Below, one piece after another: positions 1 through 61,569 of a stretch of 64,000 nt of DNA. Below the pieces are notes generated by a model. That model was not told the DNA's origin, did no database searches, and saw only the letters and a list, made by a program, of their open reading frames with translations. The DNA is from Sphingomonas sp. (GTDB lineage: Bacteria; Pseudomonadota; Alphaproteobacteria; Sphingomonadales; Sphingomonadaceae). The first letter of the stretch is position 1. Every line of letters begins with the position of its first letter. The DNA lies in NCBI RefSeq assembly GCF_017745215.1, contig NZ_JAGHZV010000004.1, forward strand, positions 36,931-100,930. Direction: 5' to 3'. A program made the translations under genes and the position numbers.

Positions 1-121
1 AATCCTCGCCCAGCGGCACTTCCTCCGGCATCCAGTGGATCTGCTGCTGGCGCTTCCAGAATTCATAGGCCCAGGGATATTCGAAGGGCTTATACTGTTT
101 GCGGGCCTCGAGAAGCGGCAT
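1..121 (-). CDS. nrdB: ribonucleotide-diphosphate reductase beta subunit (class Ia), N-terminal 40 codons only; gene continues off the left edge
   Basis: Reverse-complement of 1-121 reads MPLLEARKQYKPFEYPWAYEFWKRQQQIHWMPEEVPLGED, the typical NrdB N-terminus. AGGAG lies about 8 nt upstream of the ATG at 121. Confidence 0.75.
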   Translation of the reverse strand, partial: MPLLEARKQYKPFEYPWAYEFWKRQQQIHWMPEEVPLGED

Positions 122-991: not shown

Positions 992-1945
992 ATGGGCGTG
1001 GGACTTCAGGATTTTGCCGAGCTTGTTCCGATCATCCCGATCGCGGATGCGCGGGCGCTCGGCGCGGGGCTCTGGGACGAGGAAGCGCTCGAGGCGCTGG
1101 CGACGCACGGCGCGGTGCTGCTGCGCGGGCCGGTGCTGCGCGAGGACGGCGTCGAGCTCGCGCTGTCGATCATCGACGAGGAACTGCTCGACGACGCCTT
1201 CTGGTCGACGCCGCGCAAGCGCGTGGGCGGCAAGACGCTGACCGCGACCGAATATCCCAGCCCGCGGACGATCCAGCTCCATTCGGAGATGGCCTATATG
1301 AACTCGTTCCCGCGCTTCCTGGCGTTCCACGCGCTCGAAGTGGCGGACGAGGGCGGGCAGACGACGATCTGCAACATCGAGAAGGTCACCGAGGCGCTCG
1401 GCGACCGGCTGCGCCCCTTCGCCGAGAAGGGCGTGACGTACCGCCGCACCTTCCAGAAGGGCATCGACATCGCCTGGCAGACCGCCTTCCAGACCGAGGA
1501 CAAGGCCGACGTCGAAAAGATCGCCGAGCGCAACGGCATGGAGCTCGAATGGCTCTCGGGCGATGCGCTGGTGACGCGGCACAAGGCGCAGGGCGTGATC
1601 ACCTCCGAGGACGGCCGGCCGATCATCTTCAACCAGGCGCATATCTTCCATGCCTCGAACCTCGATCCGCAAGCGCGCGAGGGGATCGAGAAGCTCTACG
1701 GCGCCGAGCGGCTGCCGCGCCACGCGCTCTACGGCGACGGCTCGGAAATCCCGCTCGAGGACATCCAGGCGGTCCAGCAGGCGTTCGAAAATCACCAGAC
1801 GGGCATGCATTGGCGCCCGGGCGACATTTTGATCATCGACAATATGCGCTATGCCCATGGCCGCATGCCGTTCAAGGGGACACGGCGGCTAACGGTTTCA
1901 ATGGCGAGAGAGGAAAAGCTCCCCGTCCGCACGGCGCTCTCCTGA
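992..1945 (+). CDS. Fe(II)/2-oxoglutarate dioxygenase, TauD/TfdA-clavaminate synthase-like (SyrP-like)
   Basis: ORF 920..1945, start taken at internal ATG (M25). Has the HSE facial-triad motif (LHSEMAY) and a distal IDNMRYAHGR His/Arg motif typical of this fold. Confidence 0.85.
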   Translation: MGVGLQDFAELVPIIPIADARALGAGLWDEEALEALATHGAVLLRGPVLREDGVELALSIIDEELLDDAFWSTPRKRVGGKTLTATEYPSPRTIQLHSEMAYMNSFPRFLAFHALEVADEGGQTTICNIEKVTEALGDRLRPFAEKGVTYRRTFQKGIDIAWQTAFQTEDKADVEKIAERNGMELEWLSGDALVTRHKAQGVITSEDGRPIIFNQAHIFHASNLDPQAREGIEKLYGAERLPRHALYGDGSEIPLEDIQAVQQAFENHQTGMHWRPGDILIIDNMRYAHGRMPFKGTRRLTVSMAREEKLPVRTALS

Positions 1946-2006
1946 GCGCTGCCTCTTGGGCCGCGGCGTCCGCCGCGGCTGGCCCGTTGGAAGGGAAGTG
2001 TCGCGC

Positions 2007-4640
2007 ATGCCCGTTGCCGCCGTTGGTCTTGTCGGGATCGAGAAAGTCTCCTCGATCGCGTACCTCGATGCGATCTTCGACTGTTACGAGCAGCGCCGGG
2101 TGGCCGTCCCGGTCGAGCCCGGCGGCAGCGCGCCCGAGGAGCATGAGTTCGCCGAGCGGCTGACGCCGGCGGCGGGCGGCGGCTGGTTCAAGCGCGCGCT
2201 CGCGCCGATCGTCGAGGACGGGCCGGCGCAGGTCAGCTTCAGCTCGGGCACCACGGGCACGCCCAAGGCAGTGCAGATCTCGCACCGCGCGCTCGCCGAC
2301 GTCACCCAGCGGCTGATCGAAGCGATGGCGATCGACGCGACGATCCGCGAATATGTCGGGGTGCCGGTCACCTACTCCTTCGGGCTGGCGCGCGCGCGCG
2401 TGACCGCGGCGGTGGGCGGCGAGGCCTATCTGCCGCCGCGCGGCTTCGATCCGATGGAATTCGCGGCGATGCTCGACGCGGGCGAAGTCAACGCGCTCTC
2501 CGCGGTGCCGACGCTGCTGCGCGTGCTGATCCAGAACCCCGACCTCATCGGCCGCAAGACCGGCCGCAAGCTGCAATGGCTCGAGATCGGCAGCCAGCCG
2601 ATGAGCGCCGAGGACAAGAAGGCGATCCGCCGGATGTTCCCCGCGGCGCGGATCGTGATGCACTATGGCCTGACCGAGGCCTCGCGCACCACCTTCCTCG
2701 ACGTGCAGGAAGCGACCGACGCGCAGCTCGAGACGGTGGGCAGGCCGACCGGCTCGGCCGAGGTGCGGATCGACGGCGCCGGGCGGATCTGCATCCGCGG
2801 GCCGCACGTCGCCGACGGGCTGCTCAAGCCCGAAGGGCTCGAGCCGATCGTCGACGGCGAGGGCTGGCTCGTCACCAACGACCTCGGCGAAGTCGACGCC
2901 GAGGGCTTCTTGCACTTCCTCGGCCGAGACGACCATCTGCTCAACGTCGGCGGGATCAAGGTGCCCGCCGAGCTGTTCGAGGCGCGGCTGGCGGCGCTGG
3001 TCGGCGCCGATGCCGCGCATGTCGCGGTGGCGGGGATCGAGGACGCACTCCGCGGCCAGGTGGTGATGGTGGCGCACCTCTCGAGCGTCGCGGTCGGGCC
3101 GTTGAGCGAGCACGCCCGCGCGACCGGCACGGGCTTCGGGCTCGCCGCGGCCGACGTGGTGCTGATCGAGGTCGACGCGATCCCGCGCACCGATACCGGC
3201 AAGGTCCAGCGCAAGCAGCTCGCCGAAGGGCGGACGGCGCCCGTGCGCGCGGCGGCACCTGCGCCTGTCGCCGAGGCCGCCGCGGCCGCTTCGCCGGCCG
3301 CCGCCATCCCCGCGGGGATGACCGCCAAGGAAGCCGAGATCGCGCGCATCTGGGGCGAAGCGCTCGGCGTTTCGTCGATCTCGCGCGACGACAGCTTCTT
3401 CGACATCGGCGGCGATTCGCTCTCGGCGATCACCGTGGCGCTGCGCGCCGAGCAGCACGGCATGCCCAAGGACGTGATGCAGCTCATGTTCGAGGGCCGC
3501 ACCGTCGCGCAGATCGCCGCGCTGATCGGCGGCGAGGCGCCCGCGGAAGGGCTCGAGCGCAGCCGCCGCGCGGTGCTCGCCGATGCGATCAACGCGACGC
3601 GCGGCGTGCTCGTGCTGATGGTGATCATGAACCATTGGTGGCACTTCTTCGTCGAGAAGATGGGCTCGGTCGGCCGGCACATCTATCCGGTCGGCCAGAT
3701 GCTGCTGCAGATGGGCACGCCGGGCTTCGCGATGGTGTTCGGTATCGGCGTGAGTTACTTCTACATGCCCGCGTTCGAGCGCTCGCCCGAACGGATCGGC
3801 AAGCGCGTGCGCGGCAACCTGATGGTGCTGGGCGTGGGGCTGCTGCTGCTCGCCGCGCTGCGCGCGGGGCGGCTCCAGGCCGACGGGCTCGGCTTCGGCG
3901 ACATCTGGCCCGAGCAGCTCTTCTTCTCGGTGGTGCTCAGCTATTTCCTGCTGATCCCGCTCATTCCGCTGATCCTGCGGCTGGTGCGGCTCACCCCGCG
4001 GACGATCCTCAACTGCCTGACGATGGGCGCGCTCGGCATCGCGCTGCTGCTCGGCTGCCAGGACTGGTTCGAGATCCACTACACCGGCTTCCTCAACCTC
4101 GCGCGGCTGATGGTGGTCTCGCCCTATTCGGTGCCGGCGATGCTCGGCGCGGTGGGGATCGGCATGGCGATCGGTCATTGGCTGCGCAGCAACCCCGACA
4201 ACCGCGACCTCAAGGGCCAGGCGGTGCAGACGGGCATCCTGCTCGCGATCGCGGGCGCGGTGTTCCTCGAGTTCACCGGCGGCTTCTGGGCGCATCCGCG
4301 CGGGCCGCACCTGTTCCTCTTCTACGCCGGGCTGCTGCTGATCGGCTTCACCTTCCTGTTGACGCTGATCGAGCGGGCGTGGCTGCCGCGGCTGCTGCGC
4401 GTGCTGATGCTGCTGGGGCTGCTCTCCTTCCCCGCCTTCATCGCGCACGAGCTGGTGATCCCCGCGAAGGACATCCTCCACTGGCTCGGCCTGCCGTACC
4501 CCGTCGCGCTCGGCGGCCCGCTGGCGCTGTTCATCGCGGGCACGGGCTACGCGATGCTACGGCTCAACCGGATCTACTTCGGCGGCGGCACCAAGACGCC
4601 GGATCGCGAAGTGCCGGCGGAGACGGTCGAGGCGTTCTAG
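2007..4640 (+). CDS. tri-domain protein: short adenylation (AMP-binding) domain, peptidyl/acyl carrier domain and membrane acyltransferase-3 domain
   Basis: ORF 1956..4640, start at M18. Adenylation motifs SSGTTGTPKAV, HYGLTE, GWLVTNDLG, GRDDHLLNVGGIKV and PRTDTGKVQRK. Carrier motif FFDIGGDSLSAI. The C-terminal ~370 aa are polytopic with an AT3-like RGVLVLMVIMNHWWH motif. Confidence 0.85.
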   Translation: MPVAAVGLVGIEKVSSIAYLDAIFDCYEQRRVAVPVEPGGSAPEEHEFAERLTPAAGGGWFKRALAPIVEDGPAQVSFSSGTTGTPKAVQISHRALADVTQRLIEAMAIDATIREYVGVPVTYSFGLARARVTAAVGGEAYLPPRGFDPMEFAAMLDAGEVNALSAVPTLLRVLIQNPDLIGRKTGRKLQWLEIGSQPMSAEDKKAIRRMFPAARIVMHYGLTEASRTTFLDVQEATDAQLETVGRPTGSAEVRIDGAGRICIRGPHVADGLLKPEGLEPIVDGEGWLVTNDLGEVDAEGFLHFLGRDDHLLNVGGIKVPAELFEARLAALVGADAAHVAVAGIEDALRGQVVMVAHLSSVAVGPLSEHARATGTGFGLAAADVVLIEVDAIPRTDTGKVQRKQLAEGRTAPVRAAAPAPVAEAAAAASPAAAIPAGMTAKEAEIARIWGEALGVSSISRDDSFFDIGGDSLSAITVALRAEQHGMPKDVMQLMFEGRTVAQIAALIGGEAPAEGLERSRRAVLADAINATRGVLVLMVIMNHWWHFFVEKMGSVGRHIYPVGQMLLQMGTPGFAMVFGIGVSYFYMPAFERSPERIGKRVRGNLMVLGVGLLLLAALRAGRLQADGLGFGDIWPEQLFFSVVLSYFLLIPLIPLILRLVRLTPRTILNCLTMGALGIALLLGCQDWFEIHYTGFLNLARLMVVSPYSVPAMLGAVGIGMAIGHWLRSNPDNRDLKGQAVQTGILLAIAGAVFLEFTGGFWAHPRGPHLFLFYAGLLLIGFTFLLTLIERAWLPRLLRVLMLLGLLSFPAFIAHELVIPAKDILHWLGLPYPVALGGPLALFIAGTGYAMLRLNRIYFGGGTKTPDREVPAETVEAF

Positions 4641-4837
4641 GCGGCGAGCGCGTACGCCACTGCAAAGCCGGTGCCCATGAAGCCGGCGGCGAACAGCATC
4701 ATGCCGATGATCCGGAGCGCATGGCCGCGCGGGTCGTGCTCGCCGGCGCGGAGCACGCCCGGGCGCGTGAGGATCGCCACGCCCGAGATCGCGACGACCG
4801 CGCCGATCGTCGCCTGGATCGCGAGCGCGCGCGTCAC
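4637..4837 (-). CDS. small two-TM membrane protein (hypothetical)
   Basis: GTG start overlaps the stop of the upstream lipoprotein gene (GGGGTGA). 66 aa with two hydrophobic segments. Part of ORF 4637..5050(-). Confidence 0.5.
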   Translation of the reverse strand: MTRALAIQATIGAVVAISGVAILTRPGVLRAGEHDPRGHALRIIGMMLFAAGFMGTGFAVAYALAA

Positions 4838-5172
4838 CCCTCGTTCTCGATGACGGTGCCGCGGGTGCGGTCGATCGTGCGCGTGCGGTAGACGACCTTC
4901 GGGCTCCGGTTGGCGCCGACGCCGAACACGACGATGCCGAGGAAGAAGCCGAAGTCGTACCAGCCGCCGTTGTTGGGCACGGCGTAGATGGCGACATCGG
5001 GCATCACCAGGCGCAGGAACCAGGCGACCGGGAAGATGAAGCCATGCCACAGCCCGAGCAGGAAGCCGGGCGCGTCGGGCTGGATCGGTAGGACCGGGGT
5101 GGTCGCTCGGTGCGCGCAGGCGGCGAGCAGCGTCAGCGCAGCGAAGGCGGCGAGAGTGCGGAGCGGCTTCAT
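4834..5172 (-). CDS. putative lipoprotein/membrane protein (hypothetical)
   Basis: Internal ATG (M40) of ORF 4834..5289(-) gives MKPLRTLAAFAALTLLAAC, a signal peptide with lipobox, followed by hydrophobic segments. Confidence 0.65.
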   Translation of the reverse strand: MKPLRTLAAFAALTLLAACAHRATTPVLPIQPDAPGFLLGLWHGFIFPVAWFLRLVMPDVAIYAVPNNGGWYDFGFFLGIVVFGVGANRSPKVVYRTRTIDRTRGTVIENEG

Positions 5173-5270
5173 GCGGGTATCCTCACGTATGAATGGGGTT
5201 TGGGCAATCGGCGATGCATCGTTCGGGCAGGTAAAACGTTCCATGTCCGAATCCAGCAGAGGAGCTTGCC

Positions 5271-5522
5271 ATGACCGACAGCAGCGCAATCCGTGAGCAT
5301 ATGGGCGTGATCGGCGCAGACGGCGTGCATCTCGGCACCGTCGACCGCGTCGAGGGCGACAAGATCATCCTCACCAAGTCCGACAGCCCCCAGGCCGAGG
5401 ACGGCCAAGGCGCGCGCCACCATTCGCTGCCGCTCGGGCTGGTGGCGGAAGTGGAAGGCGACGAGGTGCGGCTGAGCGCCACGGCCGCGACCGCGGCCGA
5501 AGTATTCGAGGAAGCGGAGTAA
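5271..5522 (+). CDS. DUF2171 domain protein
   Basis: 83-aa ORF with AGAGGAG RBS. The pattern IREHMGVIGADGVHLGTVDRVEGDKIILTK matches my recollection of DUF2171 proteins. Confidence 0.75.
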   Translation: MTDSSAIREHMGVIGADGVHLGTVDRVEGDKIILTKSDSPQAEDGQGARHHSLPLGLVAEVEGDEVRLSATAATAAEVFEEAE

Positions 5523-5995: not shown

Positions 5996-6182
5996 GGTAG
6001 GTTCTCCTTGCTCGTTTGCGTGTCCGTTTCCGGCGAGGTGGACGGCGTGTGCCGGACAGCCATTGGATCGCTCGAACGCCGCCTGATGGAGAGGATGAGG
6101 AAGTGATGATCGCCTGATGAAATGCCGATGATTCGCCGATAAAGGAGGGTCCCGGAGGGATTTGAGCGGGAATGGGCCCAGC

Positions 6183-7766
6183 ATGAGCACCGCGGCGCGG
6201 ATCGATCTCGCGCATGCCGAAGGCTTCCGCCTCGGCCGCATCGACGTGCGCCCGGCGCTGCGCACGCTGGCGCGCGACGACGGCGCGATCGACATCGTCG
6301 AGCCGCGCGTGATGCAGGTGCTCGTCGCGCTCGCCCGCGCGAACGGCACGATCGTCAGCCGCGACGATCTCTCGGAGTGCTGCTGGGAAGGCCGCGTGGT
6401 CGGCGACGATGCGATCAACCGGGTGATCTCGCGGCTGCGGCGCGCGGCCGAGGGGATCGGCGAGGGCAGCTTCCGGATCGAGACGGTGACCAAGGTCGGC
6501 TATCGGCTGGTGGTCGATGGCGGAGCGCCCGCCGCTTCACCGGAGACGGCAGCGTCGCCCGAGACCGCGGCGTTCGACCAGATCCGGCAGTTCCGGCGCG
6601 ATCGCCGCGCGATGCTGATCGGCAGCGGCGCCGCGATCACGCTCGCGGGCGGCTGGTGGGGCTGGCGGCGGCTCACCCGGCCGCAGCCCCCCACCACGCC
6701 CCCCGCCGACGTCGCTGCGCTGATGATGCAGGCGAGCGTCGCCGCGCAGCAGGGCACCGCGGAGGGCGCCAGCCAGTCGCTCGGGCTGCTCCGCCGCATC
6801 GTCGAGATCGAGCCGGGCTATGCCGACGGCTGGGGCTTCCTCGCGCTGGCCTATGCCGGCGCCTCGACCTCGGGACCGGCGCAGACGATCGCCGATTCGC
6901 GCACCCGGGCGAACGAGGCCATCGCCCGCGCCGAAGCGATCGATCCGGGCAACGCCTATGCGCGGCTTGCCCGGATCGCGATGATGCCGTCGCTCGGCCG
7001 CTGGGCCGAGCATGAGCGCGCGCTACGCGACGCGCTGGCGGTGCATCCGCGCAATCCGATCCTGATGGGCTCGCTCGCCGGGCTGCTGATCAGCACCGGC
7101 CGCTGCCGCGAATCGGCGGACCTCATCACCAGCGCGACCGCATCGGCGCCGCCGACGCCGGGGCTGGTCTACACGCGCGTGCAGGCATTGTGGGCGGCCC
7201 AGCGGCTCGACGAGGCCGACCGCGCGATGGAGAATGCCTTCTCGCTCTACCCCAGCCATTTCGCGGTGTGGTTCACGCGCTTCTATCTGCTGCTCTATTC
7301 GGGCCATCCCGAGCAGGCGCTGGCGATGAGCCGCAACGTCGAAGGCCGCCCCACCGGCATCCCCGAGCGCAACTTCACCAGCATCGAAGCGGTCGCCGAG
7401 GCGATGATCAGCCGCAGGCCGGCCGACGTCGACAAGGCGATCGCCACCAACCTCGCGCTGGCGAAGCAAGGCGCGGGCTTCGCCGAGAATTCGATGCAGT
7501 TCGCCAGCGCGCTCGGCCGGCTCGACACGGCGTTCGAGATCGCCGACGCTTATTATTTCGACCGCGGCTTCGCGATCGGCGACCTGCGCTACACGCTCGA
7601 GCAGCGCAGCTACACGCGCCGCGGCAACCGGCGCACCCAGTTCCTCTTCTACCCCTCGACCACCGCGATGCGCGGCGATCCGCGCTTCGAGACGCTCGTC
7701 GGCGAGCTCGGGCTCAAGGCCTATTGGGCGAAGGCCGGCGTGCTGCCGGACTATAAGAAGGGCTAG
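6183..7766 (+). CDS. membrane-anchored winged-helix (OmpR/CadC/ToxR-type) transcriptional regulator with periplasmic TPR-like domain
   Basis: N-terminal trans_reg_C-like domain (EPRVMQVLVALARANGTIVSRDDL...VTKVGYRLV), one TM segment (AMLIGSGAAITLAGGWWGW) and a helical-repeat C-terminus. Start could be TTG 6162 or ATG 6183. Confidence 0.8.
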   Translation: MSTAARIDLAHAEGFRLGRIDVRPALRTLARDDGAIDIVEPRVMQVLVALARANGTIVSRDDLSECCWEGRVVGDDAINRVISRLRRAAEGIGEGSFRIETVTKVGYRLVVDGGAPAASPETAASPETAAFDQIRQFRRDRRAMLIGSGAAITLAGGWWGWRRLTRPQPPTTPPADVAALMMQASVAAQQGTAEGASQSLGLLRRIVEIEPGYADGWGFLALAYAGASTSGPAQTIADSRTRANEAIARAEAIDPGNAYARLARIAMMPSLGRWAEHERALRDALAVHPRNPILMGSLAGLLISTGRCRESADLITSATASAPPTPGLVYTRVQALWAAQRLDEADRAMENAFSLYPSHFAVWFTRFYLLLYSGHPEQALAMSRNVEGRPTGIPERNFTSIEAVAEAMISRRPADVDKAIATNLALAKQGAGFAENSMQFASALGRLDTAFEIADAYYFDRGFAIGDLRYTLEQRSYTRRGNRRTQFLFYPSTTAMRGDPRFETLVGELGLKAYWAKAGVLPDYKKG

Positions 7767-18326: not shown

Positions 18327-21300
18327 ATGGCGGCCGGCTCGTTCGATCGCACGTCCTATCCGGTCACCCGCTGGGTCTCGCCCGACGGCGACGACCATGA
18401 CGCGGGCACGCGCTACGCGCCGTTCCGCAGCCTCGACCGCGCGCAGGCCGAGGTCCGCCGATTCGCCGAAAGCGCGCCGCCGGGGAGCGAGATCCAGGTC
18501 CTGCTGATGGAAGGCGAGTATCCCCTCGCCGAGCCGCTCCGCTTCGACCCCGCGCTGTTCGGCCCCGACGGCCCGCGCGTCCGCTTCGCCAGCGCGGGGG
18601 ATGCCGTACCCGTGATCTCGGGCGGCGTGCGCATCACCGGCTGGACGCTCCACGATCCCGATCGCAACATCTGGCAGGCGAGCGCGCGCGGCCTCAACAG
18701 CCGCCAGCTGATCGTGGGCGGCCGGCGCGCCCAGCGCGCGCGCACGACGATGCCCGACGGCGGCCTCCCCGCGGGCTTCCGCCCCACCCCCGTCGTTCCC
18801 CAGCCCGCCAAGGGCGGCGAAGCCTATACGATCGGCGGCGGGATCGACTACGTCCCCACCGACCTCAACCCGGCGCCGTGGCGCGACCCGATGCTCTGGA
18901 AGAATGCCGACCAGGTCGAGGCCGTGATCCAGACGCAGTGGAAGATGATCCGCGTGCCGCTGCGCAAGGTCCACCCGCCGCTCGGCCCCGCGCCCGGCCG
19001 GATCGAGATGGCCCAGCCCGCCTGGACCAACGCCAACCTCGTCTTCACCAAACAGCCCGACGGCAGCCTCGCCCCCGGCATCTGGTCGTTCTGGCAGGTC
19101 TCCTGGTTCGAGAACCACGTCGCCTTCCTCGACACGCCCGGGGAATGGGTGCTCGACGCCGCCGCGGACACGATCTTCTACATGCCCCGCGCGGGCGAGG
19201 ACCTGGCGACAGTTGAAGCCATCCTCCCCGTGGTCGAGACGCTGGTCGAGGCGCACGGCAGCGAGGAAGCGCCGGTGTGCAACCTCGCCTTCGAAGGCCT
19301 CGCCTTCCGCCACGCGACCTGGCTCGGGCCGAGCGGCGACGACGGCTATGTCGTCGACCAGAGCGGCTTCCACCTGGTGGGCAGCGGTCATCGCTCGAAC
19401 GTCACCGGCCATTTCGAGCATGTTATCCGCACGCCCGGCAACCTCAGCTTCCGCCACGCTCGCAATATCCGCTTCGAGCGCTGCGACTTCGCGCACCTGG
19501 GCGCCGTCGCGGTCGATTTCGGCACCGGCAGCCAGGGCAACCGCATCCACGGCTGCAACTTCGACGACATTGCCTCGGCCGCGATCCAGATCGGCGGGAT
19601 CGACCGGATCGACTATTTCGAGCCCAGCACCGCCAACCACACGCGCGACAACCAGGTCACCGCCAACCGCATCCGCCGCACGGGCCGCGACTATAGCGAC
19701 TCCGCGGCGATCTACCTCGGCTTCACCACCAACAGCCTCGTCGCCAGCAACAGCATCGCCGAGACGCCCTGGTCGGGCATCGCGCTCGGCTGGGGCTGGG
19801 GGCTGCTCGATCCGGGGAGCTTCCCGGGCGTCCCCGGCGCGACATCGGGCCAATGGGGCGTGCCGCCGTCGCGCACGGTCAATTGCGGCAACCGCATCCT
19901 CCACAACCATATCGAGCGCTTCCTCGAGCAATTGTGGGACGGCGGCGCGATCTATTGCTGCGGCTGGCAGGGCAACGGCTTCGACGACGCGCTGCGGATC
20001 GAAGGCAATGTGCTCTGCCGCAAGCGCCCCGCGGCGGGCGGCAACATCCTCTACAATGACGGCGGCAGCCGCTACCTCATCGTGACCGGGAACGCCTCCT
20101 TCGACAATCCGATCGGCGCGATCGACCTCGGCCCCAAGCCGCGCCCCGGCGATCCATTGCCGTACGACGCCGCCCCCAGCGTCGTGAACGGCGTCCCCTA
20201 TGGCGGCGACGTCGGCGGCTGCGTCACCTATGGCGACATCCGCTATGAAGGCAATTACTGGGCGGCCGGGCTGATCCCGGTCAAAGAGGCGCTCACCGAC
20301 GCAGTCGAGGAACTGCTCACCCTCCTCTTCACCGGCCACGCCTTCGGCACCTATGGCCCCGGCGGCTTCTTCGACATCTGCCCCTATTCGCAGGGGCACG
20401 TCTCCTATCCGACCAACCTCGTCTTCGAAGACAACCACCAGATCCCGTTGGGCAAGGCCGACGTGCCGCCGTCGCTCCTCGCCGCCGCCGGCGTGCCCGA
20501 CGCGACGCGCGGCATCGTCGCGAGCGGCCCGGCGCCCGCGGGCGGCGGCGCGTCCTTCCCGCCGCGCAATCCGGGGCCGAGCTGGAACGTGCCGCGCGTC
20601 TCGCTGCCCGGGCTGTTCGGCGTGCAGAAGCAGTACGCCAAGGAATGGTGGTATTATGTCGGCATCGCCGACGCCGCCGACGGCAAGCGCTTCGGCCTCC
20701 AGCTCGAGATCAGCCGCTTCTCGCTCGGCAGCCTCCAGCTCGGGCTGGGCATCACCGGCATCGGCTGGCGCGACGCCACGGGCCGCGACTTCTACCTGAG
20801 CGCCGAGGGCGTCGGCTTCGGCGGGGCGCTGCGCGTGCCGCCGGTGAGCGACACGGCGTTCAGCGCGCACCTCCGCCCGCTGATCGAGATCACCGGCCGG
20901 TCGAGCGATTTGAAGCGTGACCTCCACTGGAACCTCCCGATCTTCGGCGGCAGCGACGGCTGGAAGTTCGACTATCTCCCCGCCCCCTCGCAGGGCGCCC
21001 CGCTCGGCACGCCGGGCTCGCGCTATGCGCTGGCGGTCAAGGGCCGCGGCTTCGTCACCGACGCGACCAGCGCCGACACGCGCGCGGCCAGCTACGCGCT
21101 CGACCTCGAGCTCACCGATCGCCGCGGCATGGTGATGGAAGGGCTCTCGGGCTATGTCGGCCCGGCGATGTTCACCGACGACGACATCGGTCTCGCATCC
21201 TACGAATGCGCCCAGCCGGTGCTGCGCATCGGCCGGGGCAGCCTGACGATCGACGGCACCGCGCACGCCATCGCCGGCGGCACGCTGTGGCTCGACCGCC

Positions 21301-21893
21301 AGCTGATCGCCGGCGCGCCGAGCGACACCCCACCCTCGCTCTTTGCCGCGCTCAAGGGCCAGGCGCCCGCGGCGAAGCAGCTCTACCTCGGCGACTGGCT
21401 GGGCATCACGCTCGACGACGGGCTGTCGCTCGCGCTCGCGCTGTTCTGGCGCCCGTCGACGCCGCAATGGATCACCGGCACCAAGGTCGGCCGGCCGCCG
21501 AAACAGGGCTTCGGCAACCTCTACTTGCCCGTCCAGGGCCACCAGCCGCAGGGCAACGGCGGGCTCGCGCTCAAGCCGCGGCTGGGCCCGGGCGACGATT
21601 GGGACTTCGATCTCAACATCCTCGATCCCGGGACCCCCGACGCCTCTCCCCACTGGACCTCGCCCGCCTCGGGCCACAGCTATGCGACGGCCTGGCAGAT
21701 CGACTTCGCCCCGCGCGTCCAGCGCCTCGGCCTGCCGCCGACGCTCTACCTCCGCGCGCTCAGCGAGAATTGCGAGATCATCCCCGGCGACGCGAGCGGT
21801 GCCTTCTTCGAAGGCGCCGCGCTCGCCTTCGCCGACCGCGAGGGCAAGCGGCGGATCGGCCAGGCCTTCGTCGAGCAGATGGGGTTCAACTAG
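18327..21893 (+). CDS. large fusion protein: right-handed parallel beta-helix region plus C-terminal AttH/CrtC-like lipocalin domain
   Basis: 1188 aa with GGGGGGAGG RBS. N-terminus is WVSPDGDDHDAGTRYAPFRSL (DUF1565-like) with PbH1-type repeats. The C-terminus carries KEWWYYVG..., GTLWLDRQ and FFEGAA...GQAFVEQMGF, characteristic of AttH/hydroxyneurosporene-synthase-like domains. No obvious signal peptide. Confidence 0.8.
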   Translation: MAAGSFDRTSYPVTRWVSPDGDDHDAGTRYAPFRSLDRAQAEVRRFAESAPPGSEIQVLLMEGEYPLAEPLRFDPALFGPDGPRVRFASAGDAVPVISGGVRITGWTLHDPDRNIWQASARGLNSRQLIVGGRRAQRARTTMPDGGLPAGFRPTPVVPQPAKGGEAYTIGGGIDYVPTDLNPAPWRDPMLWKNADQVEAVIQTQWKMIRVPLRKVHPPLGPAPGRIEMAQPAWTNANLVFTKQPDGSLAPGIWSFWQVSWFENHVAFLDTPGEWVLDAAADTIFYMPRAGEDLATVEAILPVVETLVEAHGSEEAPVCNLAFEGLAFRHATWLGPSGDDGYVVDQSGFHLVGSGHRSNVTGHFEHVIRTPGNLSFRHARNIRFERCDFAHLGAVAVDFGTGSQGNRIHGCNFDDIASAAIQIGGIDRIDYFEPSTANHTRDNQVTANRIRRTGRDYSDSAAIYLGFTTNSLVASNSIAETPWSGIALGWGWGLLDPGSFPGVPGATSGQWGVPPSRTVNCGNRILHNHIERFLEQLWDGGAIYCCGWQGNGFDDALRIEGNVLCRKRPAAGGNILYNDGGSRYLIVTGNASFDNPIGAIDLGPKPRPGDPLPYDAAPSVVNGVPYGGDVGGCVTYGDIRYEGNYWAAGLIPVKEALTDAVEELLTLLFTGHAFGTYGPGGFFDICPYSQGHVSYPTNLVFEDNHQIPLGKADVPPSLLAAAGVPDATRGIVASGPAPAGGGASFPPRNPGPSWNVPRVSLPGLFGVQKQYAKEWWYYVGIADAADGKRFGLQLEISRFSLGSLQLGLGITGIGWRDATGRDFYLSAEGVGFGGALRVPPVSDTAFSAHLRPLIEITGRSSDLKRDLHWNLPIFGGSDGWKFDYLPAPSQGAPLGTPGSRYALAVKGRGFVTDATSADTRAASYALDLELTDRRGMVMEGLSGYVGPAMFTDDDIGLASYECAQPVLRIGRGSLTIDGTAHAIAGGTLWLDRQLIAGAPSDTPPSLFAALKGQAPAAKQLYLGDWLGITLDDGLSLALALFWRPSTPQWITGTKVGRPPKQGFGNLYLPVQGHQPQGNGGLALKPRLGPGDDWDFDLNILDPGTPDASPHWTSPASGHSYATAWQIDFAPRVQRLGLPPTLYLRALSENCEIIPGDASGAFFEGAALAFADREGKRRIGQAFVEQMGFN

Positions 21894-55758: not shown

Positions 55759-58700
55759 ATGAAGCTGGTTCTGCGGGTTGCACTCCTGGCTCTCGTGGCG
55801 GCGCCGATCGGCGCGATCGCCGCGTTCGGCGACAATTCTCCCCAAGTCGAGATGGCCACGCCCGGCATCGGCAACGGCGCGATCGAGCGATTCACCGTCC
55901 GCTTCAGCACGCCGATGGTCGCGCTGGGCGATCCCCGCGCCGAATCGCCCTTCGACGTGACCTGCCCGGTCGCGGGCACCGGCCGCTGGGTCGACCAGCA
56001 GACCTTCGTCCATGAATTCGCATCGCCGCTCCCCGGCGGGATCAGCTGCGCGTTCAAGCTCAAGGACAAGCTCAAGAGCCTGTCGGGCTATGCGATCGCG
56101 GGGCAGCACGACTTCACCGTCGACAGCGGCGGGCCCACGGTGCGCGCGGTGCTGCCGACGCGCTACGGCGGCCAGATCGAGGAGGACCAGGTGTTCCTCG
56201 TCGCCGCCAACCAGGGCGTCGACACCGCCTCGGTGGCGGCGACCAGCTATTGCACCGTCGACGGCATCGGCGAGCGCATCCCGGTGGAGGTGCTGTCGCC
56301 TGCCATCCCTGCGCAGCTGCTCGCCGACATGGGCACCGATCGCTGGGAGGTGCGCGAGTTCCTCGAGAGCGCGGGCCTGCCGCAGGCGCTGCCGGCGAGC
56401 GCGGAGGACCGGCAGAAGGCACTCTCGACCGTGGTGGCGCTGCGCTGCCGCCGACCGCTCGCGCCGGGCCGCGACATGGCGCTGTTCTGGAGCAAGGACG
56501 TGCGCGGCGTCACCGGCAAGCTCGCCGGTGCCGACCAGCGTTTCGACTATACCGTGCGCAAGCCCTTCGAGGCGCGTTGGGAATGCTCGCGGGTCAACGC
56601 CCAGGCGGGCTGCAACCCGGTGCAGGACGGCTATGTCCGCTTCTCGGCGCCGATCCCGCGCGAGAAGGCCGAGGCGATCCGCATCCAGACGCCCGACGGC
56701 CAGCAGATCGCGCCGGCGCTTTCGGACAGCGACAAGCGCGCCAAGTTCGTCTCGGACATCAAGTTCAAGGCGCCGCTCCCCGCCGCGGTGACCGCCAAGC
56801 TGCTGCTCCCCGCCGACATCACCGACGAGAGCACGCGCAAGCTCGCCAACGCCCAGCGCTTCCCGCTCGACATCAAGATCGACGAGGCGCCGCCGCTGGT
56901 GAAGTTCGCGAGCGACTTCGGTATCCTTGAGCTCAACCAGGGCGGCGTGCTGCCGGTCACGGTGCGCAACGTCGAGGAGCAGCTCCAGGGGCAGAATCTC
57001 ACGGTCGCCGGCCAGGCGCTGCGGATCGATTCGTCGGACGGCGACGTCGCGCGCTGGATGCGCACCGTCGACGAGGCGGGCCAGACCAAATACGACCAGG
57101 TCAAGAAGGGCGACGACACCGTCTCGGTCAACCAGACCGGCGCCAAGTCGATCCTCCAGGGCAAGGGCGGCGCGACGCAGTTCAACGTCGGATTGCCGGG
57201 CAAGGGCAAGGACTTCGAGGTCGTCGGCATCCCGCTGACCAAGCCGGGCTTCTACGTCGTCGAGCTCGCTTCGCCCAGGCTCGGCGAGGCGCTGCTCGGG
57301 CGCCAGGCGCCGCGCTACGTCGCGACCGCAGCGCTCGTCACCAACATGTCGGTCCATTTCAAATGGGGCCGCGAAGGCTCGCTGGTGTGGGTGACCGCCC
57401 TCGATAGCGGGCTGGGCGTCGGGGGCGCCGACGTGCGCATCTCGGACAGCTGCACCGGGCTGGTGATCGCCAAGGGCAAGACCGACGAATCGGGCCGGCT
57501 CGCGGTCCCCGCCGAGCTGCCCGACCAGGAGAGCTGGGGCGGCTGCGGCGACACCAGCACCAACCATCCGCTGATGGTCTCCGCGACCAAGGGCGACGAC
57601 TATAGCTTCGACTGCACCTTGTGGGACGACGGCATCACGCCGAGCGACTTCGACCTGCCCTATGGCTACAGCGCCCCCGACGACGTGTTCCACAGCGTCT
57701 TCGACCGCGCGCTGGTCCGCCAGGGCGAGACGATCCACATGAAGCACATCCTGCGCCGCCCGGCCGCCAACGGCTTCGCGCTCGCGCCGGGCTTCACCGG
57801 CAAGCTGCGGCTGACGCATGGCGGATCGGACACGCAGTTCGACCTGCCGCTGACCGTCGATGCGAGCGGCAATGCCGATTCGACCTGGCAGGTGCCGCAG
57901 GGCGCGCCGATGGGCGACTATAACCTCACCGTGCTCTACAATGCCTCGGTCGACGGCAAGAGCGAGGAGCGCCAGCTCTGGACCGGCCAGTCGTTCAAGG
58001 TCGACGAATATCGCCTGCCGACGATGAAGGCGACCGTCTCGGGCCCGAAGGACCCCGCGATCCGGCCCAAGACGCTGCCGCTCGACCTGTTCGTCGGCTA
58101 TCTCTCGGGCGGCGGCGCGTCCAACCTGCCGGTCGACCTGCGCGTCGGCTATTTCGCCAGCTCCTCCTCGCCCGAGGGCTATGAGGCGTACACCTTCGGC
58201 GGCCACAGGATCGAGGAAGGCACCAAGGCGCTGAACGTCGATATCGACGATGTCGACGACGCCGACAGCCAGGACACGGCCAGCCTGCCGCCGACCCAGA
58301 CCATCCCCTCGACGCTCGGCGCCGACGGCAGCGCGCGCACCACGGTCGACGTGCCGCAGACGATCGACGGCGACACGACGATGCAGGTCGAGATGGATTA
58401 CCAGGACGCCAACGGCGAGGTGCTGACCGCGTCCTCCTATATCCCGCTCTATGCCTCGGGCGTGCGGCTCGGCGTCAAGACCGACGGCTGGCTGATGAAG
58501 CAGGACGACCTCCGCCTGCGCCTCGTCACGCTCGACACCTCGGGCAAGCCGGTGGCCAACCAGTCGGTGACGGTCGACCTCTACAGCCGCGAGGTGCTCA
58601 CCGCGCGGCGGCGGCTGATCGGCGGCTTCTACGCCTATGACAACCAGGTGAAGACCACCAAGCTCTCCGCTTCCTGCGCCGCGACCAGCGATGCGCAGGG

Positions 58701-61569
58701 GATGGCGACCTGCCAGCTCAACCCGGGCGTGTCGGGCGAAGTCTATGCGGTGGCGACCACCAAGGACGCCAACGGCAATGAGTCGCGTGCCGTCACCTCG
58801 GTGTGGCTGGTCGGCGACGACGCCTGGTGGTTCGGCGGCGACAATGGCGACCGCATGGACGTCATCCCCGAGAAGCAGGAGTATAAGTCGGGCGAGACCG
58901 CCCGCTTCCAGGTGCGCATGCCCTTCCAGGCCGCGACCGCGCTGGTCACGGTCGAGCGCGAGGGCGTGCTGTCGAGCTTCGTGACGACGCTGTCGGGCAA
59001 GGATCCGGTGATCGAAGTGCCGATGGACGGCGCCTACGCGCCCGATTGCTATGTCTCGGTGATGGCGGTGCGCGGGCGCGTCGCCGGCTGGTCGCAATGG
59101 ACCGCCGACCTCGCGCGCGACTGGGGAATCCCCTTCTTCAGCAAGGAAGGCGCGAGCGAGACCGCGACCGTCGACCTCGCCAAGCCGAGCTACCGCATCG
59201 GCGTCGCCAAGGTGAAGGTCGGCTGGGACGCGCACCGGCTCGGCGTGACGGTGAAGGCCGACAAGGAGAAATACGGCGCGCGCGACACCGCGACGGTCGA
59301 CCTCGACGTGAAGACGCCCGACGGCAAGCCCGCGGCGACCGCCAACGTCGCCTTCGCCGCGGTCGACGAGGCGCTGCTCCAGCTCGCGCCCAATCCGAGC
59401 TGGGACGTGCTCGACGCGATGATGGGTGATCGCCCGCTCTCGGTGCTCACCTCGACCGCGCAGACCCAGGTGGTCGGCAAGCGGCATTACGGCAAGAAGG
59501 CGGTGGAAGCCGGCGGCGGCGGCGGTGGCGATCTCTCGGGGCTCAACCGCGAGAATTTCCAGCCGGTGCTCTTGTGGCAGGGCAAGGTCGATCTCGACGC
59601 GAACGGCCATGCCCAGGTCAAGGTGCCGCTCTCCGACGCGCTGTCGCAGTTCCGCCTCGTCGCGATCGCGACCGACGGCGCGCAGCTGTTCGGCACCGGC
59701 GAGACCAAAATTCGGACCGCGCAGGACCTCAGCATCTTCTCGGGCGTGCCGCCGCTGGCGCGCACCGGCGACACCTTCGGGGCGATGTTCACGCTGCGCA
59801 ACGGCTCGGACAAGCCGATGCGGATCACCGCGACGGTGGACGTGAGCCCGCGCGTCGCGACCGGCAAGCCGCTCACCGTCGATATCCCGGCGGGCGGCGC
59901 GGTGCCGGTGACGTGGAACCTCACCATGCCGGGAATCGAAGGCAACCTCACCTGGACGGTGAAGGCGAGCTCGCCCGACGGCAAGGCCAAGGACCAGGTG
60001 ACGGTGACGCAGGAAGTCGTTCCCGCGGTGCCGGTCGAGGTCTGGGCCTCGTCGCTGGTCCAGGCCGGGCCCGTGGGCAATCCGGCGTCGAGCTTCGCGA
60101 TCATGCTGCCGGCAGGGGCGCTCCCCGGCCGCGGCAGCGTCGACGTGCTGCTCGCCGACACGGTCGCGCCGCCGCTCTCGGGCGTGCGCGAATACATGAG
60201 CTGGTATCCGTACGGCTGCCTCGAGCAGCGCACCTCGAAGGCGATCGCGCTGGGTGACACCGGCGCCTGGACGCGGATCGCGAGCGAGCTGCCCGCCTAT
60301 CTCGATAACGACGGGCTCGCGCGCTACTTCACCACCGACAGCCTGCCGGGCTCGGAAGCGCTGACGGCGTACGTGCTGTCGATCACTGCCGAGGCCGGGC
60401 TGCCGCTGCCCGACGGTCCGCGCGCCAGGATGATCGACGCGCTCAAGACCGTGCTCGCAGGCAAGCTGCGCCACGAGGATTATGGCGACGCGCGCTTCCG
60501 CAACGTCGCGATCTTCGCGGCGCTGGCGCGACAGGGCGCGGCCGATGCCTCGATGCTCGGCCAGCTCGGCATCACGCCGGCCGAGATGCCCACCGCGACG
60601 CTCGCCGACTATCTCGACGCGCTCGGCCATGTGCAGGGGCTCGCCAATGCCAATGCGCTGCGGCTCGACGGCGAGAAGGTGCTGCGCACGCGCCTCGTCT
60701 ACGAAGGCACGCGGATCGACATCGGCGACAAGGGCAAGATGCCGTGGTGGCTGATGTCGTCGGACGACGAGGCGGTGGCCAAGCTCGCGATCGCCACGCT
60801 TGGCCGACCGGCCTGGGCCAATGATTCGAGCAAGATCTTCGTCGGGCTCGGCAAGCGCCAGATGAAGGGCCATTGGGACACGACCACCGCCAATGCCTGG
60901 GGCACGATCGCCGCGCGCAAGTTCATGGCGATGTATCCCGCGCAGGCTGTGACCGGCAGCACCACGGCGCTGTTCGGCAGCCAGACGGTGGCGCGGAGCT
61001 GGCCGCTCGCCGAGCCGCAGCGCGCGTTCAGCTTCGCGCTGCCCGCGGCGCAGACGCCGATCGCGTTCACGCAGTCCGCGGGCGCGGGCCCCTGGGCGTT
61101 CGTGACGGTCAAGGCCGCGGTGCCGCTCACCCAGCCGTTGTTCGCCGGCTACAAGATGACCAAGAAGATCGAGGTCATCCAGGCGTACAAGCCGGGCGTG
61201 CTCAGCCGCGGCGACGTGATCAAGGTGACGATCACGGTCGATGCCTCGGCCGAGCGCAACTGGGTGGTGATCAACGATCCGGTGCCCGCGGGCGCGACGA
61301 TCGTCGGCGATCTCGGCGGCCAGTCGCAAATGCTGGGCGCCCAGGCGGGCAGCGGCACCGGCGCGCAGCCGAGCTATGTCGAGCGCGGCAAGGACGCGTG
61401 GCGCGCCTATTTCGCCTGGCTGCCCGCGGGGAGCGCGACGGTGTCCTACGTGATGCGGGTCAACTCCACCGGCAAGTTCAACCTGCCGGCGACGCGGGTG
61501 GAAGCGATGTACTCGCCCGAGATCCGCGCGCAGGCGCCCAATGCCGTGATGAGCGTCGCGCAGCGGTGA
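55759..61569 (+). CDS. bacterial alpha-2-macroglobulin family protein (YfhM-like) with thioester motif
   Basis: 1936 aa with a signal peptide. YPYGCLEQ thioester motif and MG-domain-like repeats. Followed by pbpC. Confidence 0.9.
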   Translation: MKLVLRVALLALVAAPIGAIAAFGDNSPQVEMATPGIGNGAIERFTVRFSTPMVALGDPRAESPFDVTCPVAGTGRWVDQQTFVHEFASPLPGGISCAFKLKDKLKSLSGYAIAGQHDFTVDSGGPTVRAVLPTRYGGQIEEDQVFLVAANQGVDTASVAATSYCTVDGIGERIPVEVLSPAIPAQLLADMGTDRWEVREFLESAGLPQALPASAEDRQKALSTVVALRCRRPLAPGRDMALFWSKDVRGVTGKLAGADQRFDYTVRKPFEARWECSRVNAQAGCNPVQDGYVRFSAPIPREKAEAIRIQTPDGQQIAPALSDSDKRAKFVSDIKFKAPLPAAVTAKLLLPADITDESTRKLANAQRFPLDIKIDEAPPLVKFASDFGILELNQGGVLPVTVRNVEEQLQGQNLTVAGQALRIDSSDGDVARWMRTVDEAGQTKYDQVKKGDDTVSVNQTGAKSILQGKGGATQFNVGLPGKGKDFEVVGIPLTKPGFYVVELASPRLGEALLGRQAPRYVATAALVTNMSVHFKWGREGSLVWVTALDSGLGVGGADVRISDSCTGLVIAKGKTDESGRLAVPAELPDQESWGGCGDTSTNHPLMVSATKGDDYSFDCTLWDDGITPSDFDLPYGYSAPDDVFHSVFDRALVRQGETIHMKHILRRPAANGFALAPGFTGKLRLTHGGSDTQFDLPLTVDASGNADSTWQVPQGAPMGDYNLTVLYNASVDGKSEERQLWTGQSFKVDEYRLPTMKATVSGPKDPAIRPKTLPLDLFVGYLSGGGASNLPVDLRVGYFASSSSPEGYEAYTFGGHRIEEGTKALNVDIDDVDDADSQDTASLPPTQTIPSTLGADGSARTTVDVPQTIDGDTTMQVEMDYQDANGEVLTASSYIPLYASGVRLGVKTDGWLMKQDDLRLRLVTLDTSGKPVANQSVTVDLYSREVLTARRRLIGGFYAYDNQVKTTKLSASCAATSDAQGMATCQLNPGVSGEVYAVATTKDANGNESRAVTSVWLVGDDAWWFGGDNGDRMDVIPEKQEYKSGETARFQVRMPFQAATALVTVEREGVLSSFVTTLSGKDPVIEVPMDGAYAPDCYVSVMAVRGRVAGWSQWTADLARDWGIPFFSKEGASETATVDLAKPSYRIGVAKVKVGWDAHRLGVTVKADKEKYGARDTATVDLDVKTPDGKPAATANVAFAAVDEALLQLAPNPSWDVLDAMMGDRPLSVLTSTAQTQVVGKRHYGKKAVEAGGGGGGDLSGLNRENFQPVLLWQGKVDLDANGHAQVKVPLSDALSQFRLVAIATDGAQLFGTGETKIRTAQDLSIFSGVPPLARTGDTFGAMFTLRNGSDKPMRITATVDVSPRVATGKPLTVDIPAGGAVPVTWNLTMPGIEGNLTWTVKASSPDGKAKDQVTVTQEVVPAVPVEVWASSLVQAGPVGNPASSFAIMLPAGALPGRGSVDVLLADTVAPPLSGVREYMSWYPYGCLEQRTSKAIALGDTGAWTRIASELPAYLDNDGLARYFTTDSLPGSEALTAYVLSITAEAGLPLPDGPRARMIDALKTVLAGKLRHEDYGDARFRNVAIFAALARQGAADASMLGQLGITPAEMPTATLADYLDALGHVQGLANANALRLDGEKVLRTRLVYEGTRIDIGDKGKMPWWLMSSDDEAVAKLAIATLGRPAWANDSSKIFVGLGKRQMKGHWDTTTANAWGTIAARKFMAMYPAQAVTGSTTALFGSQTVARSWPLAEPQRAFSFALPAAQTPIAFTQSAGAGPWAFVTVKAAVPLTQPLFAGYKMTKKIEVIQAYKPGVLSRGDVIKVTITVDASAERNWVVINDPVPAGATIVGDLGGQSQMLGAQAGSGTGAQPSYVERGKDAWRAYFAWLPAGSATVSYVMRVNSTGKFNLPATRVEAMYSPEIRAQAPNAVMSVAQR

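Follow-up and report, generated by a model that had tools for sequence, protein, structure and literature searches.

A candidate self-loading transmembrane O-acyltransferase in Sphingomonas: an adenylation-carrier protein fused to a divergent AT3-like membrane domain

What reaction is carried out by a single polypeptide that joins an adenylation (A) domain, a carrier domain and a membrane domain resembling the AT3 acyltransferases, and what does the dioxygenase encoded directly upstream contribute to it? These questions are raised by a pair of genes in a 64,000-nucleotide stretch of Sphingomonas sp. DNA (contig NZ_JAGHZV010000004.1, positions 36,931 to 100,930; hereafter the window). An earlier note, made from the sequence of this stretch alone, had described two co-directional genes 61 nt apart, a SyrP-like dioxygenase (gene 1) and an 877-aa fusion (gene 2), and had read the fusion as a module that activates an acid, tethers it and transfers it to an envelope acceptor. 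The coordinates of the open reading frames (ORFs) confirm this arrangement (Table 1), and the earlier interpretation as a whole is partly supported by the computational analysis described here. We propose that gene 2 encodes a self-loading, carrier-dependent transmembrane O-acyltransferase acting on an extracytoplasmic polysaccharide, with the TauD-family product of gene 1 as an optional tailoring partner. The probability of this reading is, in our estimate, about 0.6.

The three-part fusion is genuine, old and conserved. In a protein search, more than 100 protein clusters cover 97-98% of its 877 residues at 38-63% identity, and all of them are 850-890 aa long. A scan of one genome per species found a relative encoded in 570 species genomes. 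Full-length matches are distributed over Sphingomonadales, Rhodobacterales, Methylophaga, Cellvibrionaceae, Competibacteraceae, Chlorobium, Planctomycetota, Cyanobacteria, Spirochaetia and Deltaproteobacteria. The exact gene 2 product is encoded on a second assembled contig (Logan) of 4.9 kb, and several public sources hold the same 877-aa protein. Public proteins identical and equal in length to the window's are P0001 for gene 2 ('AMP-binding protein [Sphingomonas sp.]') and P0122 for gene 1 ('TauD/TfdA family dioxygenase [Sphingomonas sp.]'). Both genes are of coding type, with a GC content at third codon positions of 0.88 (gene 1) and 0.94 (gene 2) in a genome of 68% GC. Short representatives of 250-600 aa are few, and most of them begin in mid-profile and look like contig-end fragments. 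As had been stated before, the gene 2 protein contains no condensation, thioesterase or reductase domain detectable in a Pfam scan.

The membrane domain carries most of the argument. Hydropathy and an AlphaFold2 (AF2) model both give about ten long hydrophobic helices between residues 520 and 858, preceded by the cytoplasmic carrier domain and, just before helix 1, by an ERSRR stretch. Residues 532-546 form the motif RGVLVLMVIMNHWWH, which holds an R-X10-H pair. In AT3 proteins, R-X10-H in helix 1 is absolutely conserved, and it is essential in OafA/OafB (PMC9833829; PMC9558356). Whether the catalytic His and Arg would hold up in an alignment was a question left by the earlier note: R532 and H543 are kept, at exactly this spacing, in 75 of 75 aligned homologues. 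Other invariant residues of the domain in the same alignment are W544, G570-T-P-x-F574, Y646, G719, G775 and G804, and H814 is conserved in 95%.

Membership in the AT3 family can be traced through relatives of the window protein. The AT3 profile PF01757 matches 4 of 23 family members (best E 6e-9), and it is the only Pfam family that matches more than two of the 23. One bridging protein, P0020, has full-length identity of 49% with the window protein and aligns with profile positions 3-324 of 326 (E 2e-5). A variant with two carriers (P0115) scores 37 bits, over the cutoff, and a standalone protein of 369 aa (P0257) matches the subfamily profile at E 1.4e-82 and PF01757 at 36.6 bits against a cutoff of 31. 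The window's domain would thus join AT3 by transitive homology rather than by a direct PF01757 match.

The predicted structure of the domain points the same way. A model of the domain alone (predicted local distance difference test, pLDDT, 91.9; predicted TM-score, pTM, 0.89) was compared with the PDB using Foldseek. The sole credible matches are two entries for human HGSNAT, 8vlv_A (probability 1.0, TMq 0.58) and 8vly_A (TMq 0.51), which share 10-11% sequence identity with the domain; all further matches have a TM-score of 0.25 or less. HGSNAT (YeiB family) and AT3 both belong to the TmAT superfamily. In the HGSNAT structure, the pantothenate arm of acetyl-coenzyme A (CoA) runs through the core of the membrane helices toward the catalytic His, located at the far side (PMC11357348). 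When a profile of the membrane domain was searched against PDB sequences with hmmsearch, only spurious claudin matches were returned, and a word-indexed homology search with this domain by itself yielded a single fragment. We read the domain as a divergent, distinct AT3/TmAT acyltransferase subfamily in which the catalytic Arg/His are intact. The subfamily is well separated from mainstream AT3, since an exhaustive profile search yields just 346 representatives among 1.84 billion. Thus, the AT3 label given earlier holds as regards the R-X10-H pair, the bridging sequences and the predicted HGSNAT-like fold, and it does not extend to a direct Pfam match in the window protein.

If the membrane domain is an acyltransferase, its position within the polypeptide bears on the acyl donor. 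The exhaustive search placed the domain at the C-terminal end without exception, and one or more carrier domains precede it in each of the multidomain architectures scanned. Members with a short A domain and one carrier measure about 850-900 aa. Others combine the short A domain with two carriers (L077, 2783-5632; P0101, P0115 and P0254), three (P0307) or four (P0097 and P0088). A further architecture consists of a condensation (C) domain, a full-length A domain, a peptidyl-carrier-type (PCP) domain and the membrane domain, in 1356-1425 aa (P0259, P0274 and P0337; P0346 at L144, 9001-13224). In a sister architecture of ~720 aa, the short A domain and carrier are followed by an LbH hexapeptide-repeat acyltransferase (L012, 10001-12160; L140, 8001-10166; L086-L092; P0072). 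LbH enzymes are soluble and likewise take pantetheine thioesters as substrates. The A domains of these LbH-tailed proteins are 65-67% identical to that of the window, as close as those of AT3-tailed Sphingomonas relatives. Because the membrane domain is always C-terminal and behind carriers, and is swapped for an LbH acyltransferase in close relatives, the acyl group most likely comes from the fused carrier. The activate-tether-transfer logic is in this way strongly backed by comparative architecture. Among the Sphingomonas-type relatives compared, conservation is much higher in the A domain (61-73%) than in the membrane domain (31-53%); a conserved A domain beside a diverging membrane domain would fit a constant acyl group passed to varying acceptors.

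Two features of the relatives are recorded here as separate observations. The two to four tandem carriers recall the tandem acyl carrier proteins (ACPs) of polyunsaturated fatty acid synthases and of trans-AT polyketide synthases (PKSs). In several Sphingomonadales loci, a second, canonical standalone AT3 gene adjoins the fusion gene: this is so in L003 (10741-11865, minus strand) and L005 (6753-7781, minus strand), both confirmed by PF01757, and similarity to these two genes reveals one in L009, L013 and L017 as well.

The A domain is expected to determine which acid is activated. Pfam AMP-binding (PF00501) matches gene 2 at E 1.6e-29, with residues 62-272 corresponding to profile positions 153-383 of 384, and SSGTTGTPK occurs at residues 79-87. 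The domain is thus short at its N-terminus, as noticed earlier; about 150 profile positions, the N-terminal third, are missing, whereas a complete N-terminal subdomain of ANL enzymes has about 400 residues ahead of the hinge. The short N-terminus is real, because the ORF can be extended upstream by no more than 17 codons. The same truncation is found in the homologues scanned, and the C-A-PCP variants have a full-length A domain. Core motifs of the ANL superfamily are invariant in the 75 homologues (S80-G-T-T-G-x-P-K87, Y220-G-L-T-E224, T290-x-D292, G306-R307...K318 and K399), so that gene 2 has the motif set A3, A5, A7 and A8 together with the A10 catalytic Lys. Foldseek matches of the full-length model are ANL enzymes only (MenE, 4CL, MatB and CahJ).

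The best solved relatives of the A domain are 4-coumarate-CoA ligase (4CL), the malonyl-CoA synthetase MatB and MenE. It is roughly equidistant from the A domains of nonribosomal peptide synthetases (NRPSs) and from acyl-CoA ligases, and the NCBIfam families most similar to it are CoA ligases for fatty acids and aryl acids, all scoring far under their cutoffs. P120-V-T-Y-S-F-G, the A4 motif, looks acyl-CoA-ligase-like, its counterparts in the alignment being PMFHIYA in 4CL and PIYHTHG in MatB. By A4 correspondence rather than direct alignment with PheA, we take Tyr123 to occupy the place of Asp235, the residue that binds the alpha-amino group in NRPS domains (PheA; A4 motif FDxS). An alpha-amino acid appears an unlikely substrate, because Tyr123 stands where NRPS domains have this Asp, and the amino acid proposed in the earlier note is accordingly disfavored. 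Two arginines just past A4, R129 and R131, are invariant in the 75 homologues and could, as a speculation, bind an anionic substrate. A gellan-type L-glyceryl or other hydroxyacyl group as the product is a guess.

An acid activated in this way would need a carrier in working order. Pfam PP-binding (PF00550) matches residues 444-507 at E 6e-11. The motif GGDSLSAI is found at residues 468-475, and G468-G-D-S471-L472 is invariant in the 75 homologues. The carrier forms four helices in the model (440-453, 471-483, 488-495 and 500-507). The full-length AF2 model, which was built on the homologue alignment, has a mean pLDDT of 90.4 and falls below 50 only in the linker (413-431) and at the C-terminus from ~863.

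The contribution of gene 1 was assessed from its sequence and its linkage. Its product matches the Pfam TauD family PF02668 at E 6e-33 (115 bits; cutoff 27), and the facial triad quoted in the earlier note, H97-S-E99 with H289, is present in gene 1; as H97-x-E99...H289 it is invariant in orthologues (alignment A3, four sequences) and aligns with the triads of SqoD and At3g21360. TauDs of at least 50% identity were found at 24 metagenome loci: an A-PCP gene is adjacent in 18, three contigs are truncated and three loci have none. The TauD orthogroup is therefore linked to an A-PCP gene in 18 of 21 informative loci, which answers the co-occurrence check that had been proposed. At 30 loci whose TauDs reach 35% identity at most, no A-PCP gene stands beside the TauD. 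The TauD gene is almost always directly upstream of the A-PCP gene on the same strand, with a gap of 3 to ~110 nt when the two are co-directional (3 to 66 nt in L142, L006, L077, L012/L140 and L101). Since the pairing is seen with AT3-tailed, LbH-tailed, double-carrier and four-carrier variants, the TauD orthogroup is dedicated to the A-PCP cassette. The same TauD orthologue also stands in front of the LbH-tailed sister genes, and a GT2 gene follows the cassette in L140.

The dedication does not run in both directions. TauD is not adjacent to the closest homologue of gene 2 (P0002, 63% identity) or to P0028 and P0042, and among the species-genome loci examined it is present at 3 of 80 fusion loci. 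Hydroxylation by TauD is thus an optional add-on and not a general partner of the family. The pair in the window is flanked by a ribonucleotide reductase (RNR) small-subunit gene and a DUF2171 gene. Related Sphingomonas contigs L002 and L003 have the same flanks and the same order (RNR small subunit, A-PCP-AT3 gene, DUF2171) and lack TauD, so that TauD appears to have been gained or lost at one fixed chromosomal site.

At which step TauD would act is less clear-cut. SyrP-type TauD-family enzymes beta-hydroxylate carrier-tethered amino acids. Gene 1 shares with them the Pfam family, the HxE...H triad and a position adjoining a carrier-domain gene; it differs in that its nearest solved relatives act on free substrates and in that the group tethered here is probably not an amino acid. 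A domains with and without a linked TauD cannot be told apart by any alignment column, and their A4 and A5 pocket motifs are nearly identical. Because the two sets are indistinguishable, action of TauD after activation of the acid is mildly favored.

The alternative is that the substrate of TauD is the acid in its free, not yet activated form, or else a sugar, a sulfonate or the finished glycan, in which case the pairing would reflect a shared pathway rather than SyrP-type chemistry. The closest solved relatives of the gene 1 protein are the sulfoquinovose dioxygenase SqoD (9YUT; E 8e-21) and At3g21360, and the 'SyrP-like' label is not supported; the substrate of SqoD is a free sugar (PMC12951627). 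The protein has no equivalog-level NCBIfam match. One orthologue (50% identity; L109, 6001-6822) has no A-PCP neighbor and lies beside a Wzx-type flippase, a sulfotransferase and an FGE-sulfatase-like gene, and sulfotransferases recur in the clusters of the family. Against this stands the tight adjacency to A-PCP genes in 18 of the 21 informative loci, whatever the acyltransferase tail, and the likeness of the pocket motifs argues against selection of a different, pre-hydroxylated acid. A further point comes from a Pseudomonas lipopeptide NRPS cluster, in which a TauD-type gene beside syrD is named after At3g21360 by automatic annotation. Going by the known syr gene order of P. syringae, we take this gene to be the SyrP counterpart; if it is, carrier-acting hydroxylases may share the clade of gene 1. 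We consider action away from the carrier unlikely, at somewhat less than one chance in three.

Transfer to a polysaccharide is expected to leave a trace in the gene neighborhood. ORFs within 7 kb of the fusion gene were clustered for 83 loci. A GT2+GT4 glycosyltransferase was found near the fusion at 41 of these loci, a WecG/TagA/CpsF glycosyltransferase at 38, a GDP-mannose-dehydratase-like enzyme at 21, GT2 enzymes at 18 and 17, exosortase EpsH with EpsI at 16, sulfotransferases at 11 and the priming transferase Bac_transf at 9. When the 60 loci of at least 15 kb are considered, 47 have at least one polysaccharide gene within 7 kb and 41 have at least two. Individual loci give the same picture: an Aeoliella locus contains sulfotransferases, glycosyltransferases, Wzy and a pyruvyl transferase; a four-carrier variant is accompanied by glycosyltransferases, sulfotransferases and GDP-mannose-pathway genes; and a standalone family member lies within an exosortase and WecG cluster. 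The C-A-PCP variant in L144 is placed among Wzy, Wzx, GT4 and sulfotransferase genes, with a C-A-PCP-thioesterase gene nearby, and hints at aminoacyl or peptidyl decoration of a polysaccharide. For the family, a polysaccharide acceptor is the best-supported inference from these neighborhoods.

The same chemistry could instead be directed at membrane lipids or at small molecules that are secreted (examples are glycolipids, sphingolipids, hopanoids and natural products), and gene 2 would then be a tailoring or release enzyme resembling those of NRPSs or fatty acyl-AMP ligases. The window itself lends this some weight. The ~60 kb downstream of the pair contain no polysaccharide genes, the ten large ORFs scanned being housekeeping or unrelated, and the closest Sphingomonas relatives, L002 and L007, likewise lie outside polysaccharide clusters. 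Some AT3 proteins (TmaT, Asm19 and CmmA) acylate acceptors other than polysaccharides (PMC9558356). The A domain's nearest NCBIfam families, the fatty- and aryl-acid CoA ligases, would also suit such a role, although they match far below cutoff, and the C-A-PCP versions resemble NRPS termination modules, one of them near a C-A-PCP-thioesterase gene. However, most large loci are in polysaccharide clusters, including that of the C-A-PCP variant itself; an LbH-tailed relative is followed by a GT2 gene; and no lipid-synthesis or PKS genes recur among the neighbors at the 83 loci. A lipid or small-molecule acceptor is therefore judged improbable, at roughly one chance in five. Thus, the envelope acceptor proposed earlier is favored by the family's polysaccharide clusters and not by the window's own surroundings.

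It is very unlikely that the membrane domain is a mere anchor or channel without transferase activity, with another enzyme releasing the acyl group. The missing Pfam AT3 match of the window sequence and the degenerate RXXR motif would allow it. However, R532, H543, W544, GTPxF, Y646 and H814 show little or no variation from phylum to phylum in a domain that otherwise diverges to ~30% identity, a bona fide soluble acyltransferase fold replaces the domain in close relatives, and the predicted fold matches a catalytic transmembrane acetyltransferase; on these grounds we reject it. An assembly, frameshift or gene-calling artefact is effectively refuted by the uninterrupted, uniformly coding-like ORF, by the second contig encoding the exact product and by the same continuous architecture in hundreds of independent genomes of many phyla.

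For the self-loading O-acyltransferase, the following sequence of events is proposed. The short ANL domain would adenylate a small carboxylic acid, probably not an alpha-amino acid to judge from its motifs, and the fused carrier would take up the acyl group on its phosphopantetheine arm at Ser471, as the invariant GGDS implies. The loaded arm, which is chemically the same as the acyl-CoA arm, would then enter the cytoplasm-facing cavity of the AT3-like domain, as AT3 proteins and HGSNAT set the precedent. The membrane domain starts ~10 residues past the carrier; Arg532 is predicted to lie close to where helix 1 meets the cytoplasm, and His543 further into the membrane. The position of R532 corresponds to that of Arg14 of OafB, which has been modelled as holding the phosphate of the CoA arm (PMC9833829). 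An extracytoplasmic acceptor would next receive the acyl group on one of its hydroxyls; to judge from the gene neighborhoods, this acceptor is most probably a polysaccharide, secreted or capsular, or its lipid-linked repeat unit. Where present, the upstream TauD-family enzyme most likely hydroxylates the acyl group after activation; the linkage is observed, and this chemistry is the presumed one. In LbH-tailed relatives, this acyl group would go instead to a sugar precursor in the cytoplasm.

Several results weigh against this proposal. All of the evidence is computational (sequence, gene context and predicted structure). The window protein has no Pfam AT3 match, and its C-terminal 366 residues match no Pfam or NCBIfam model at E<=10. 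The RXXR motif, which AT3 proteins have at the cytoplasmic face of helix 3, is kept loosely: the family has a basic cluster at the start of helix 3 (R596 63%, R/K598 67%, R/K602 76%), where the window sequence reads K599-R-V-R602, and the exact RXXR spacing varies across the family. Comparison by hhalign with six neighboring canonical AT3 proteins gave a local match only, in a G..S[YF]..Y..H helix, at 4% probability. AT3 proteins are held to use acyl-CoA and not carrier proteins (PMC9558356), and a carrier donor is without precedent in the AT3 family. In principle, the truncation might impair the A domain. Given the L109 orthologue in a polysaccharide cluster, the target of TauD could be the glycan and not the tethered acyl group, and the nearest solved relative of TauD acts on a free sugar sulfonate. 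The acceptor at the window locus is the weakest link of the proposal.

How does gene 2 compare with known systems? The AT3 (PF01757) O-acyltransferases, such as OafA/OafB, OatA, ExoH/ExoZ, OpgC/MdoC, IcaC and GumF/G, have like gene 2 about ten helices, the helix-1 R-X10-H and a cytoplasmic N-terminus. The shared role would be acyl transfer across the membrane, with a pantetheine thioester in the cytoplasm as donor and a sugar outside it as acceptor, and their genes also lie in polysaccharide clusters. In contrast to these proteins, the gene 2 domain is C-terminal to its own A domain and carrier, is too divergent for the Pfam model and forms a small separate clade. A 2022 review of AT3 proteins lists the architectures AT3-only, AT3-SGNH and AT3-alanine racemase and favors acyl-CoA over an ACP as donor (PMC9558356). 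No characterized protein with an adenylation-carrier-AT3 architecture was found in AT3 reviews or literature searches, in agreement with the earlier note; few subscription papers were covered, so that this absence is not proof. HGSNAT, the sole solved match in fold, differs in being eukaryotic and lysosomal, in N-acetylating from acetyl-CoA and in having an extra luminal domain.

The logic of gene 2 is closest to systems built from separate proteins. In the Dlt system, the amino-acid adenylase DltA, the carrier DltC, the MBOAT membrane acyltransferase DltB and DltD are separate proteins. Dlt shares with gene 2 the activate-tether-translocate logic by which an envelope polymer is esterified with an acid that the cell does not supply as its CoA thioester. 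Gene 2 is nevertheless not a Dlt member, being a single polypeptide with an AT3/TmAT fold and a Tyr at the Asp235 position. In the AlmEFG system, which modifies lipid A with glycine in Vibrio cholerae, an adenylase and a carrier feed a membrane-associated acyltransferase that decorates an envelope glycolipid. These are again three separate proteins, AlmG belongs to the lysophospholipid acyltransferase superfamily and not to AT3, and the substrate is an amino acid. The A-PCP-LbH sisters (L012, P0072) put an LpxA/LpxD-type user of pantetheine thioesters where the AT3-like domain sits, although this architecture is not itself found in the window. LpxA and LpxD use the free housekeeping ACP and not a fused, dedicated carrier. 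What is new here is thus an AT3-type fold with a fused loading module: AT3 relatives lack the module, and Dlt and AlmEFG share the logic with separate proteins and other membrane folds.

The two genes probably form one operon (Table 1). A sequence scan found no terminator-like site between them, and no regulatory RNA (Rfam), sigma-70-type promoter or terminator was found around both genes. The ~530 nt upstream of gene 1 (460-990) have a lower GC content of ~0.62 and contain no coding-like ORF and no Rfam or sigma-70 match. Downstream, two convergent genes on the minus strand encode a 66-aa two-helix membrane protein (4637-4837), with an overlap of 4 nt at the gene 2 stop codon, and a 151-aa lipoprotein-like protein with an LLAAC signal (4834-5289); equivalents of both also follow the homologue in L002. 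A plus-strand ORF of 534 aa (6162-7766), 1.5 kb downstream of the pair, has by translation a winged-helix DNA-binding-like N-terminus and a long region resembling tetratricopeptide repeats. Two large plus-strand genes further along appear unrelated to the pair: a 1188-aa protein with only a weak match to the CrtC lipocalin domain (18327-21893) and a 1936-aa bacterial alpha-2-macroglobulin (55759-61569).

Table 1 Features of the gene pair and its upstream flank (window coordinates).
Feature	Position	Strand	Basis
Class I ribonucleotide reductase small-subunit gene, 5' end, runs off window	1-121	-	Read from sequence
Gene 1, TauD/TfdA-family Fe(II)/2-oxoglutarate dioxygenase, 317 aa	992..1945	+	Pfam PF02668
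His97-Ser98-Glu99 codons, first two iron ligands (HxE)	1280..1288	+	Invariant in four-sequence alignment A3; aligns with fHhEMA of SqoD and At3g21360
His289 codon, distal iron ligand (RYAHGR)	1856..1858	+	Invariant in A3; aligns with SqoD distal His region
Spacer, gene 1 to gene 2, 61 nt	1946..2006	+	ORF coordinates
Gene 2, single 877-aa polypeptide: short A, carrier and AT3-like membrane domain	2007..4640	+	One uninterrupted ORF
Adenylation (ANL) domain, residues 1-410	2007..3236	+	Pfam AMP-binding, invariant core motifs
Flexible Ala/Pro-rich linker, residues 411-435	3237..3311	+	pLDDT <50 at residues 413-431
Carrier (PCP/ACP-type) domain, residues 436-510	3312..3536	+	Pfam PP-binding
Phosphopantetheine site Ser471	3417-3419	+	GGDS motif
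10-helix membrane domain, residues 520-858	3564..4580	+	Hydropathy, AF2, R-X10-H
Arg532 codon	3600-3602	+	R-X10-H motif
His543 codon	3633-3635	+	R-X10-H motif
His814 codon	4446-4448	+	95% conserved

How AT3 proteins receive an acyl group and pass it across the membrane is an open question in the field, where acyl-CoA is for now taken to be the donor in all cases (PMC9558356; PMC9833829). An A domain and one to four carriers hard-wired to an AT3-type domain argue that a protein-bound pantetheine arm can feed the AT3 fold. Gene 2 offers a self-contained, single-polypeptide system for the mechanism, in which loading, threading and transfer could each be followed by mass spectrometry. A broader and more tentative proposition, to which we give somewhat less than even odds, is that the AT3-type domain is a dedicated transmembrane off-loading domain for carrier thioesters, a membrane-spanning counterpart of the NRPS thioesterase that decorates secreted polysaccharides across many phyla. 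If this is true, polysaccharides would receive acids, hydroxy acids and even aminoacyl or peptidyl groups for which no CoA thioester exists, the family would account for a hidden class of assembly-line-tailored exopolysaccharides, and its members would be the first AT3 proteins with a protein-bound pantetheine donor. Databases label the family only as 'AMP-binding protein', and its membrane acyltransferase part is invisible to routine annotation. The family points to unknown acyl decorations on the exopolysaccharides of marine and soil bacteria, among them Sphingomonadales, Rhodobacterales, Planctomycetota, Chlorobium and Cyanobacteria, and acyl substituents of this kind control the gel, adhesion and phage-receptor properties of exopolysaccharides.

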